IMG/VR virus record: IMGVR_UViG_2693429634_000018
DNA length: 10,457 nt
Reading direction: 5' to 3' (one strand)
DNA from: a virus
Taxonomy: Duplodnaviria; Heunggongvirae; Uroviricota; Caudoviricetes
The notes beneath the pieces were generated by a model. That model was not told the DNA's origin and made no database searches. It was given only the letters and a program-made list of their open reading frames with translations. Shown here one piece after another: positions 709-4,107 of this stretch (its first letter is position 1; each line of letters begins with the position of its first letter). The position numbers and the translations under genes are program-made.

Positions 709-3700
709 ATGGGTAAAGGCAGCAGTAAGGGGCATACCCCGCGCGAAGCGAAGGACAACCTGAAATCCACGCAGTTGCTGAGTGTGATTGATGCCATCAG
801 TGAAGGGCCGATTGAAGGTCCGGTGGATGGATTAAAAAGCGTGCTGCTGAACAGTACGCCGGTGCTGGACACTGAGGGGAATACCAACATCTCCGGTGTC
901 ACGGTGGTGTTCCGGGCAGGTGAGCAGGAGCAAACACCGCCGGAGGGATTTGAATCCTCCGGCTCCGAGACGGTGCTGGGTACGGAAGTGAAATACGACA
1001 CGCCGATCACCCGGACCATCACGTCGGCAAACATTGACCGACTGCGTTTTACCTTCGGCGTGCAGGCACTGGTGGAAACCACCTCAAAGGGAGACAGGAA
1101 TCCGTCGGAAGTCCGCCTGCTGGTTCAGATACAACGTAACGGTGGCTGGGTGACGGAAAAAGACATCACCATTAAAGGCAAAACCACCTCACAGTATCTG
1201 GCCTCGGTGGTGGTGGGTAACCTGCCGCCGCGCCCGTTCAATATCCGGATGCGCAGGATGACGCCGGACAGCACCACAGACCAGCTGCAGAACAAAACGC
1301 TCTGGTCGTCATACACCGAAATCATCGATGTGAAACAGTGCTACCCGAACACGGCACTGGTCGGCGTACAGGTGGATTCGGAGCAGTTCGGCAGCCAGCA
1401 GGTGAGCCGTAATTATCATCTTCGCGGGCGCATTCTGCAGGTGCCGTCGAACTATAACCCGCAGACGCGGCAATACAGCGGTATCTGGGACGGAACGTTA
1501 AAACCGGCATACAGCAACAACATGGCCTGGTGTCTGTGGGATATGCTGACCCATCCGCGCTACGGCATGGGAAAACGTCTTGGTGCGGCGGATGTGGATA
1601 AATGGGCGCTGTACGTCATCGGCCAGTACTGCGACCAGTCGGTGCCGGACGGCTTTGGCGGCACGGAGCCGCGCATCACCTGTAATGCCTGGCTGACCAC
1701 GCAGCGTAAGGCGTGGGATGTGCTCAGTGATTTCTGCTCGGCGATGCGCTGTATGCCGGTATGGAACGGGCAGACGCTGACGTTCGTGCAGGACCGACCA
1801 TCAGATAAGGTGTGGACCTATAACCGCAGTAATGTGGTGATGCCGGATGATGGTGCGCCGTTCCGCTACAGCTTCAGCGCCCTGAAGGACCGCCATAATG
1901 CCGTTGAGGTGAACTGGATTGACCCGAATAACGGCTGGGAGACGGCGACAGAGCTTGTGGAGGACACGCAGGCCATTGCCCGTTACGGTCGTAACGTCAC
2001 GAAGATGGATGCTTTTGGCTGTACCAGCCGGGGGCAGGCACACCGCGCCGGGCTGTGGCTGATTAAAACAGAACTGCTGGAAACGCAGACCGTGGACTTC
2101 AGCGTGGGTGCCGAAGGGCTTCGCCATGTACCGGGCGATGTCATTGAAATCTGCGATGATGACTATGCCGGTATCCGCACCGGCGGGCGCGTGCTGGCGG
2201 TAAACAGCCAGACCCGGACGCTGACGCTCGACCGTGAAATCACGCTGCCATCTTCCGGCACCACGCTGATAAGCCTGGTTGACGGGCAGGGGAGTCCGGT
2301 CAGCGTGGAGGTTCAGTCCGTCACCGACGGCGTGAAGGTGAAAGTGAGCCGTGTTCCTGACGGCGTTGCTGAATACAGCGTATGGGGGCTGAAGCTGCCG
2401 ACGTTGCGCCAGCGCCTGTTCCGCTGCGTGAGTATCCGTGAGAACGACGACGGCACGTATGCCATCACCGCCGTGCAGCATGTACCGGAAAAAGAGGCCA
2501 TCGTGGATAACGGGGCGCACTTTGACGGCGACCAGAGCGGCACGGTAAATGGTGTCACGCCGCCAGCGGTGCAGCACCTGACCGCAGAAGTCACCGCAGA
2601 CAGCGGGGAATACCAGGTGCTGGCCCGCTGGGACACGCCGAAGGTGGTGAAGGGCGTGAGCTTCCTGCTTCGCCTGACCGTGGCAGCGGATGACGGCCGT
2701 GAGCGGCTGGTCAGCACGGCCCGGACGACGGAAACCACTTACCGCTTCACACAACTGGCTCTGGGGAACTACAGGCTGACAGTCCGGGCAGTAAATGCGT
2801 GGGGGCAGCAGGGCGATCCGGCGTCGGTATCGTTCCGGATTGCCGCACCGGCAGCACCGTCGCGGATTGAGCTGACGCCGGGCTATTTTCAGATAACCGC
2901 AACGCCGCATCTTGCCGTTTATGACCCGACGGTACAGTTTGAGTTCTGGTTCTCGGAAAAGCGGATTACCGATATCAGGCAGGTTGAAACCACAGCCCGC
3001 TATCTTGGCACGGGGCTGTACTGGATAGCCGCCAGTATCAATATCAAACCGGGCCATGATTATTACTTTTATATCCGCAGTGTGAACACCGTTGGCAAAT
3101 CGGCATTCGTGGAGGCCGTCGGTCGGGCGAGCGATGATGCGGAAGGTTACCTGGATTTTTTCAAAGGCAAGATAACCGAATCCCATCTCGGTAAAGAGCT
3201 GCTGGAAAAAGTTGATCTGACGGAGGATAACGCCAGCAGACTGGATGAGTTTTCGAAAGAGTGGAAGGATGCCAACGATAAATGGAATGCCATGTGGGCT
3301 GTCAAAATTGAGCAGACCAAAGACGGCAAACATTATGTCGCGGGTATTGGCCTCAGTATGGAGGACACGGAGGAAGGCAAACTGAGCCAGTTTCTGGTTG
3401 CCGCTAACCGTATCGCGTTTATTGACCCGGCAAACGGGAATGAAACGCCGATGTTTGTGGCGCAGGGCAATCAGATATTCATGAACGACGTGTTCCTGAA
3501 ACGCCTGACGGCCCCCACCATTACCAGCGGTGGCAGTCCTCCGGTATTTTCCCTGACATCAGACGGAAAGCTGACCGCTAAAAATGCGGATATCAGTGGT
3601 AGTGTGAATGCGAACTCCGGGACGCTCAACAACGTCACGATTAATGAGAACTGTCAGATTAAGGGGAAACTGTCAGCCAATCAGATTGAAGGCGATATTG

Positions 3701-4107
3701 TCAAAACGGTCAGCAAGTCTTTCCCCCGCACGAACAGTTATGCCAGTGGCACCATCACGGTAAGAATCAGTGATGATCAGAAATTTGACCGGCAGGTCAT
3801 GATACCGCCAGTGTTATTCCGCGGTGGTAAGCATGAGAATTTCAACAGTAATAACCAACAGTCATACTGGTATTCAACCTGCCGGTTAAGAGTGACCCGC
3901 AATGGTCAGGAGATTTTTAATCAGTCCACGACGGATGCTCAGGGCGTATTTTCCTCAGTTATAGATATGCCTGCCGGACAGGGGACGCTGACACTGACAT
4001 TCACCGTATCTTCATCAGGAGCGAATAACTGGACACCAACAACCAGTATCAGCGATCTGCTGGTTGTGGTGATGAAAAAATCCACAGCAGGCATCAGTAT
4101 CAGCTGA
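709..4107 (+). CDS. J: Host specificity protein J (central tail fibre / tip attachment protein, lambda gpJ-like)
   Basis: 1132-aa ORF, the same length as lambda J. N-terminus [41 protein letters not shown] is the characteristic J start. GGAG Shine-Dalgarno at 697-700, 8 nt before the ATG at 709. Follows I and precedes lom as in lambda. Confidence 0.95.

Follow-up and report, generated by a model that had tools for sequence, protein, structure and literature searches.

The closest described system is A8, a natural E. coli gpJ tip. Brödel et al. (2024, Nature, PMC11338833) fused it to lambda J, with residue 964 as the fusion point, and screened it on a recipient deleted for lamB, into which the chimera delivers DNA. 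In a lamB/ompC double deletion, delivery is obtained when a plasmid supplies OmpC variants, of which 23 were tested, and it reaches 90 % at an MOI of about 20 on MG1655 and EDL933 OmpC alike (PMC11338833). Another tip, 1A2, is also OmpC-dependent; compared with A8 it is efficient only to EDL933 OmpC, and two of the 23 variants are served by neither (PMC11338833). The A8 fibre is represented in the PDB by 9WCA ('Closed state of A8 gpJ 713 central tail fiber') and by 9WCB, an open state with three chains of 'OmpC G17 from E. coli EDL933'; both titles are taken here from Foldseek output, and a literature search on the two codes returned only unrelated papers. OmpC is also used by phage 434 (h434 host range; PMC11101478).

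A search of the literature brought up nothing specific on natural lambdoid phages that carry the A8 tip and have a mapped receptor. A 2026 receptor-prediction preprint was set aside, its scope being Drexlerviridae-type GpJ and not lambda-type tips.

Here we analyse J in a 10,457-nt stretch of DNA from a tailed phage (IMG/VR record IMGVR_UViG_2693429634_000018; hereafter the window). We put the probability at roughly 93 % that the last ~490 nt of this gene are an exchangeable A8 cassette, recombined onto a lambda/434-type body and docking on OmpC rather than LamB.

Gene J and its surroundings

The gene and its main parts are the following:

709..4107, + strand: J (tip attachment protein / central tail fibre), an intact ORF of 1132 aa from the ORF list and its translation.
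709..3602, + strand: J body of lambda/434 type, with hub domains, FNIII domains, alpha-helical shaft and most of the beta-prism fibre.
3619..4107, + strand: A8-type receptor-binding cassette (residues ~971-1132), comprising the last fibre-prism layers and the Ig-like receptor-binding domain.
3730..4104, + strand: Ig_GpJ_C (Pfam PF12421, the C-terminal receptor-binding domain of J), residues 1008-1132.

Six Pfam domains, all above their cutoffs, follow one another in J: FNIII-A_GpJ, Phage-tail_3, Ig_J, Ig_J_second, Phage_Tail_Tip and Ig_GpJ_C. The last of them lies at the extreme C-terminus (E=4.9e-36; score 124.2 bits, cutoff 26.2). A phmmer search aligned J to the lambda gpJ chains 8IYK and 8K35 with E=0, residues 1-1131 being covered in 8IYK. 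The gene is flanked by Lambda_tail_I (1..648) upstream and by Ail_Lom (4174..4773) and phage_tail_N/Phage_fiber_C (4832..6160) downstream, all by Pfam, and this I-J-lom-side-fibre order is colinear with lambda, 434 and others. Domain order and gene context both place this J among the lambda-type tip attachment proteins. Two ORFs embedded in or overlapping the 3' end of the gene (3608..3763 on the + strand and 3939..4262 on the - strand) had neither family support nor an Rfam hit and were set aside as probable frame artefacts.

Identity to lambda breaks at the tip

A sequence-only reading of the window had described most of J as lambda-like, with a C-terminus of roughly 150 codons departing from lambda. 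Alignment bears this out and gives the divergent block a length of ~158 codons; the peptides quoted in that reading are both found in the translation of 709..4107. Compared with lambda (NC_001416) and 434, the DNA of J is 92-100 % identical per 150-nt window until ~3630, while from ~3634 to the stop codon the identity is 40-54 %. At the protein level residues 1-974 are 97.5 % identical to lambda and residues 975-1132 only 43.6 %, and the corresponding values against 434 J are 98.4 % for the body and 44.0 % for the tip. BLASTP of the last 168 aa gave 47 % against lambda and 47 % against 434. The tip thus lacks high identity to both the LamB-binding allele of lambda and the OmpC-binding allele of 434.

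The relationship is reversed in phages of another type. The J of the Stx1a phage Stx1_131719 has a body of only 67.0 % protein identity and a tip of 100 %, and that of CP-1639 has 69.7 % and 98.7 % respectively; among EHEC Stx phages the bodies are 67-71 % identical to the body here. Phage 2H10 matches in both parts (body 97.7 %, tip 100 %). The comparison with EHEC-prophage J proteins, which had been proposed alongside that with lambda, therefore ends in a tip unlike lambda's and identical to that of Stx1_131719. Tips of other types are more distant, with protein identities of 61.7 % (WGPS2), 78.5 % (1717) and 82.3 % (4A7).

Match of the tip to the A8 allele

Residues 965-1132 are identical at 168 of 168 positions to residues 261-428 of the A8 gpJ 713 chain in 9WCA/9WCB (9wca_J, E=6.5e-107). 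At the DNA level the GpJ A8 sequence in the machine-read supplement of PMC11338833 matches window positions 3531-4107 at ~95 %; 11 of the 30 mismatching columns are single-base gaps typical of text recognition, and there are also a few synonymous sites. Over the grafted block the tip is accordingly, by its sequence, the A8 allele.

The fold of the tip is known independently of any model because the identical sequence has been solved. A single-sequence AlphaFold model of the 168-aa tip is all-beta and of low confidence (mean pLDDT 52.5), and it was not used to place loops. With this low-confidence model as query, Foldseek returned 9WCA, 9WCB, 8XCK and 8XCJ as its top four, a ranking that is partly sequence-driven.

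From an alignment of six distinct tip alleles we defined four variable stretches:

3715..3744, + strand: indel-rich stretch 1, residues ~1003-1012, where indels cluster among the six alleles; candidate contact loop.
3829..3876, + strand: hypervariable stretch 2, residues 1041-1056, with 7 columns that average 3 or more residue types among the six alleles; candidate contact loop.
3916..3951, + strand: hypervariable stretch 3, residues 1070-1081; candidate contact loop.
4006..4041, + strand: hypervariable stretch 4, residues 1100-1111; candidate contact loop.

By analogy with the four bottom loops L1-L4 of lambda (PMC11101478), these stretches may be the receptor-contact loops.

The tip is predicted to bind OmpC and not LamB, because it is identical to the OmpC-bound A8 chain, for which delivery is LamB-independent and OmpC-dependent. 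The sequence-only reading had expected a different receptor and had suggested a comparison with J variants of known receptor specificity; that comparison leads to the OmpC-dependent A8, in agreement with both 9WCB and PMC11338833. In the proposed mechanism the central tail fibre ends in a trimer of the tip, whose Ig-like domains would dock on the trimeric porin OmpC. Binding would spread the bottoms of the three domains, with the effect that the beta-prism fibre would twist, the helical shaft flip and the tail tip open for DNA ejection. The model is built on analogy with lambda-LamB (PMC11101478) and on the two A8 structures, closed (9WCA) and open (9WCB).

Base composition along J

It had also been claimed that the last ~150 codons are more AT-rich than the rest of J. 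This proved correct: positions 3628-4104 have 47.0 % GC, compared to 57.8 % for the rest of the gene (Fisher p=1.2e-5), and among all 477-nt windows of J the GC minimum is the one starting at 3626. Since lambda's own J tip has 54.3 % GC, the tip is AT-richer than both the rest of J and its counterpart in lambda.

The best single change-point in J is nevertheless located at 2884 (60.0 % to 49.4 %), which is ~750 nt upstream of the divergence and inside DNA that is 92-100 % identical to lambda. The further drop from 51.1 % in 2884-3627 to the 47.0 % of the tip is not significant (p=0.18), and the same fall in GC ~1.2 kb ahead of the stop codon was found in nine of the nine J genes compared. For the most part the visible shift is common to J genes in their distal third and does not mark a swapped block. 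Composition is weak evidence for acquisition of the tip, because the GC step precedes the junction by ~750 nt and occurs in lambda as well. The sequence-only reading had taken the compositional shift to suggest recombination; that conclusion stands on other grounds, namely incongruence and junctions, while the argument from composition is weak.

Recombination junctions

The two ends of the exchanged block are marked by the following features:

3603..3618, + strand: 5' recombination junction, codons 965-970 (SVNANS), placed by the switch of informative sites, within a 19-residue conserved stretch.
4125..4144, + strand: terminator-like hairpin in the J-lom spacer with a T-run after it, from a consensus scan and the sequence.

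At the 5' side the last 434-like informative site is at 3615 and the sites are continuously Stx1_131719-like from 3618. The ~60-nt stretch that holds this junction stays conserved when J bodies of just ~67 % identity are compared. The 3' junction falls at or just after the J-lom hairpin, about 4129-4245; informative sites are Stx-phage-like to ~4129 and mixed beyond, because both parental types are ~95 % alike there. Between the junctions, the DNA of the tip is 98-100 % identical to that of phages with distant J bodies, which match the body here at just 60-79 % on the DNA level and 67-70 % on the protein level. Taken together, the incongruence of body and tip trees and the mapped junctions, rather than composition, support the gain of the tip by recombination. 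Homologous recombination at the short conserved stretch of codons 965-970 would have joined the cassette to a lambda/434-type J body.

It is conceivable, and in our opinion quite improbable, that selection keeps the boundaries of the cassette (the conserved stretch and the J-lom hairpin) as dedicated linker sites for shuffling between co-resident prophages. If so, OmpC-binding alleles such as A8, 1A2/WGPS2 and 434 would be traded as the OmpC loops of the host vary. Alternatively the conserved stretch may reflect no more than structural constraint on one layer of the fibre prism.

Alternative explanations

One alternative is that the tip is a diverged LamB-binding domain and that the phage still uses LamB like lambda. 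The tip has the same Pfam family and length as that of lambda, and the fold class is common to both, the lambda chains 8XCK and 8XCJ being third and fourth in the Foldseek ranking. Against this, its identity to the lambda tip is low and all four variable stretches are different. The identical domain, moreover, works on a lambda body in a lamB deletion, depends there on supplied OmpC (PMC11338833) and has been solved in complex with OmpC. The loops of OmpC clash with the open-state receptor-binding domain of lambda (PMC11101478), and therefore LamB and OmpC need different tips. We consider continued use of LamB effectively refuted and leave it next to no probability. Divergence in place, through rapid diversifying selection on a lambda-like J and without horizontal exchange, is scarcely more credible. 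Receptor-binding tips are indeed under strong diversifying selection and the variation of the tip is concentrated in four stretches, but such divergence is unable to yield identity to a distant lineage, and the tip here is 98-100 % identical in DNA to that of phages with distant bodies. The switch in identity is also completed within ~15 nt, and synonymous positions have changed equally, with a DNA identity to lambda of ~50 %, close to the lower limit at which coding DNA can still be aligned.

A different possibility, which is compatible with a role in OmpC binding, is that the cassette is real and sits in a decayed prophage in which it no longer serves infection. A fragment of a Mutator/IS256-family transposase is found at 7490..7789, towards the argW end; the tail/effector end directly adjoins the integrase IntS and argW instead of lying at the opposite end of the prophage, which is unusual; and many E. 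coli genomes have several copies of the tip, in up to 10 places per genome, as is usual where a strain is rich in prophages and many of the copies are defective. On the other hand I, J, lom, stf and a small fibre ORF are each complete and undisrupted, and a 100 % identical tip occurs in phage genomes on deposit, for some of which a propagation host is named (2H10, Turner and PhiR29_2 on E. coli C). We regard decay as unlikely, although clearly less so than the two explanations above, and the prophage presumably still makes infectious particles.

The lom and side-fibre module

Downstream of the cassette the window continues with:

4174..4773, + strand: lom (Ail/Lom outer-membrane protein; Pfam Ail_Lom, E=9e-120).

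DNA from 4143 to 4705 is 86-100 % identical to 434, 2H10, Stx1_131719 and CP-1639, compared to 37-64 % for lambda. Judged by these identities, lom belongs to a lom-stf-tfa module shared with 434 and the EHEC Stx phages, and is unlike the lom of lambda. The prophage is visible over 10 kb only.

Distribution and significance

Of 20,395 complete genome records of E. coli, about 1,500 carry the DNA of the tip at an identity of at least 95 %. When species-representative genomes were scanned with the tip protein, only more distant alleles came up, none above 77 % identity; they were in Escherichia ruysiae, Shigella flexneri, Gilliamella and some MAGs. The tip is genuine, was interpreted correctly and has been characterised before, and its allele is well known. 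No new question is opened by it, because the allele is common, its receptor has been found experimentally and the receptor complex has been solved.

The locus illustrates that host range can be read from sequence. Particles, if made, should adsorb via OmpC, which is reliably expressed in the gut, as against the maltose-regulated LamB. The use of OmpC bears on which strains are open to lysogeny and, for stx-carrying relatives, on the spread of the toxin gene. J in the window also offers a clean natural case of modular tip exchange, with the same junction that phage engineers chose.

Comparison with known systems

The engineered A8 gpJ (PMC11338833; 9WCA/9WCB) and the J described here share a lambda-like body and the place of the junction (residue 964 compared to 965-970). 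Unlike the chimera, the fusion here is natural, its body is 97.5 % identical to lambda's rather than lambda's own, and next to it stand a lom of 434/EHEC type and, in place of engineered fibres, a short side fibre of collagen-like type. Two of these differences count against the A8 reading: the ~2.5 % of residues at which the body departs from the lambda body of the chimera, and the side fibre, which is of the short collagen-like type and not lambda Stf. The two OmpC variants that neither A8 nor 1A2 serves, and the chance that the prophage is defective, also count against it.

The lambda J-LamB complex (8XCJ/8XCK; Ge et al. 2024, PMC11101478) has the same Ig_GpJ_C domain, tip length and position at the end of a trimeric fibre, and closed and open states are described for both lambda J and the A8 fibre. 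Lambda differs in the sequence of the tip, in its receptor, LamB, and in GC content. The path of signal transduction through the fibre is presumably as in lambda, because the bodies are so similar.

Phage 434 has a near-identical body and a lom-stf-tfa region that is 86-100 % identical in DNA to that of the window, and essentially only the ~500-nt tip cassette therefore differs between the two. The 434 and A8-type tips, just 44 % identical, are two distinct OmpC-binding alleles. Together with the 1A2 / Stx2a_WGPS2, 4A7 and Stx2-1717 types we see one family of exchangeable J tips across lambdoid and EHEC prophages, where 1A2 is read as the WGPS2 type from the machine-read supplement sequence rather than from a formal alignment. 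The last 26 residues of the tip are common to the window and to the 1A2/WGPS2, 4A7 and Stx2-1717 types.

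The C-terminal block of J differs from lambda

The J gene of the window (709..4107, plus strand, 1132 aa) encodes the tail-tip, or central tail fibre, protein. Along its length every 150-nt window to about position 3630 has 92-100 % DNA identity to J of lambda (NC_001416) and of phage 434, while beyond this point and up to the stop codon identity is only 40-54 %. At the protein level, the body (residues 1-974) shares 97.5 % identity with lambda and 98.4 % with 434, and the tip (residues 975-1132) 43.6 % and 44.0 % respectively. BLASTP with the 168 C-terminal residues gives 47 % to both phages. 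The sequence-only reading had described a mostly lambda-like J with a differing C-terminus of roughly 150 codons; the peptides it quoted are found in the translation, and its estimate of length is accurate, the divergent block measuring about 158-162 codons. Phage 434 has a local drop to 83 % DNA identity at 3301..3400, where lambda is at 99 %, which suggests, from sequence comparison, one more small patch of mosaicism in the fibre region.

The tip was exchanged at a sharp junction

The J genes of Stx1a phage Stx1_131719 and of CP-1639 show the opposite pattern to the lambda-type phages: their bodies are 67.0 % and 69.7 % identical to the window protein, and their tips 100 % and 98.7 %. Judged from sequence, this body/tip incongruence is strong evidence for recombination. 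With 434 and Stx1_131719 representing the parents, informative sites are 434-like to 3615 and Stx-phage-like from 3618 onward. This switch puts the 5' junction within codons 965-970 (SVNANS), which belong to a conserved stretch ([19 protein letters not shown]). Toward the 3' end, sites of the Stx-phage type continue past the J stop to about 4129, where there is a terminator-like hairpin (4125-4144); further on, 434 and the EHEC phages are about 95 % alike across lom, stf and the small fibre ORF. Divergence of the tip in place is excluded because the tip is identical to those of distantly related J genes and the switch is 15-nt sharp. Acquisition by recombination, as first proposed from base composition, is supported by the incongruence and the mapped junctions, to which composition adds little.

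The tip (3628-4104) has a GC content of 47.0 %, against 57.8 % in the remainder of J (p=1.2e-5), and the lowest-GC 477-nt window of the entire gene begins at 3626, so the AT-richness reported for the last 150 codons stands. The main GC step is elsewhere: the best single change-point is at 2884 (60.0 % upstream, 49.4 % downstream), about 750 nt upstream of the divergence and within DNA that keeps 92-100 % identity to lambda. At the junction GC falls again, from 51.1 % to 47.0 %, but not significantly (p=0.18). Loss of GC over the last 1.2 kb or so is common to all nine J genes compared, lambda among them, and in GC the tip cannot be told apart from the window's chromosomal end (49.0 %, p=0.48). 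Compositionally, it is the proximal two thirds of J, rich in GC, that stand out as unusual. Since the step lies upstream and is shared with lambda, and the junction drop is non-significant, the swap can be neither located nor proven from composition alone; this argument is the weakest link, and the phylogenetic and structural evidence is decisive. Position 2884 corresponds to about residue 725-726, close to where the first Ig-like domain meets the second, and the step there recurs in all nine J genes; an ancient module boundary and different amino-acid usage in the fibre part are candidate causes of the step. A separate AT-rich island (6450..7500, GC 0.34-0.43), which holds an NleG-family effector gene, contrasts with its surroundings far more than the tip does.

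The tip is an OmpC-binding allele

Residues 1008-1132 match the Pfam J receptor-binding domain Ig_GpJ_C (E=4.9e-36). Searched against the PDB, residues 965-1132 match chain 9wca_J, 'A8 gpJ 713', with 100 % identity (E=6.5e-107), with lambda chains scoring far lower (about 1e-38). Entry 9WCA is titled 'Closed state of A8 gpJ 713 central tail fiber' and 9WCB, with three OmpC chains, 'Open state of A8 gpJ 713 central tail fiber with OmpC G17 from E. coli EDL933' (both released 2026-01-28). The source of A8 is Brödel et al. (Nature 2024, PMC11338833), who took the tip from a natural E. coli gpJ, fused it to lambda J at residue 964 and used a lamB-deleted recipient for screening. In that work A8 and a second chimera, 1A2, were assayed in cells lacking both lamB and ompC to which 23 OmpC variants were supplied, 21 of which were served by the two together. 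A8 delivered to 90 % of cells at an MOI of about 20 on MG1655 OmpC and EDL933 OmpC alike, and also reached a Klebsiella pneumoniae ST258 strain given a suitable side fibre. The GpJ A8 DNA of the supplement aligns to 3531-4107 with about 95 % identity, 11 of the 30 mismatching columns being single-base gaps typical of text recognition.

The A8-identical tip, the published genetics and the OmpC complex support the earlier proposal of a receptor other than LamB. Continued use of LamB, the lambda receptor, is contradicted by both the genetics and the complex and is for practical purposes excluded. The tip is a natural instance of a widespread, already characterised OmpC-binding J allele.

Across the phage collection, tips form discrete classes of identity to the window tip. 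Forty-four phage records have at least 98 %, including Stx1a- and Stx2a-converting phages, CP-1639, YYZ-2008, 2H10, Turner and PhiR29_2. The other classes are at about 82 % (4A7, ev017), 78.6 % (Stx2-1717), 61 % (Stx2a_WGPS2), 46 % (434 type) and 44 % (lambda type). From a reading of the supplement sequence, 1A2 appears to correspond to the WGPS2 type. Among complete E. coli genomes, 1,017 records carry the tip DNA at 99 % identity or more and a further 495 at 95-99 %, and a single genome can have it at as many as 10 places; outside Escherichia and Shigella the search found distant relatives and no close ones. The PhiR29_2 record (PV340557.1) splits J into two overlapping CDSs (6001..7992 and 7970..9397). 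Translated straight through, 6001..9397 contains 28 stops, which points to a frameshift or an error of sequencing; apart from this the gene has 98.4 % identity to the window J.

Variable stretches and a possible trigger

When six distinct tip alleles are compared, most of the variation falls in four stretches, which we infer to be candidate receptor-contact loops:

residues 1003-1012 (approximate), indel-rich
residues 1041-1056
residues 1070-1081
residues 1100-1111

The strands between them and the last 26 residues are conserved. A single-sequence structure model of the tip (pLDDT 52.5) was too poor to inform. In lambda, four loops (L1-L4) at the bottom of the trimeric receptor-binding domain enter the LamB trimer; on binding, the domain bottoms spread and hydrogen bonds are added to the fibre prism, which twists, and the helical shaft then flips and the hub opens for exit of the tape-measure protein and DNA (PMC11101478). 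Given a J body with 97.5 % identity to the lambda protein, and PDB states of the A8 fibre (closed, and open with receptor bound) that parallel those of lambda, the same series of movements is expected here with OmpC as trigger in place of LamB.

Prophage layout and comparison with known phages

The window spans the boundary between a lambdoid prophage, represented by its distal tail genes, and the E. coli chromosome:

1..648, tail assembly gene I
709..4107 (+), J
4174..4773, lom
4832..6160, short collagen-repeat side fibre, 442 aa
6162..6431, small fibre-C-terminus ORF, 89 aa, with its own Phage_fiber_C domain
6641..7288, NleG-family type III effector gene
7490..7789 (-), Mutator/IS256 transposase fragment
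8032..9249 (-), integrase IntS
9375..9449 (-), argW, tRNA-Arg(CCT)
9525..10457 (-), yfdC

The same argW layout is present in complete E. coli genomes, and strain E2 has it with NleH1-1 and NleD replacing NleG. The side fibre carries collagen Gly-X-Y repeats and a Phage_fiber_C end, and its DNA at about 5250-6000 has a GC of 0.58-0.71 and an AT skew up to 0.54. Within 6641..9449 the tail/effector end directly adjoins IntS and argW, and the order J-b region-int is that of the vegetative map, matching the 434 record. In an integrated lambda-type prophage the tail end and the integrase are at two opposite ends, whereas here they are side by side. This odd position and the transposase fragment leave room for a defective prophage copy, although every tail gene visible in the 10 kb is intact.

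At the DNA level, the side-fibre module (4832..6431) is 86-100 % identical to that of phage 434 and of EHEC Stx phages and is not common to lambda, 2H10 or PhiR29_2. The cassette of about 510 nt is essentially what sets the window apart from a 434-like phage; against lambda, the lom and side fibre are different as well.
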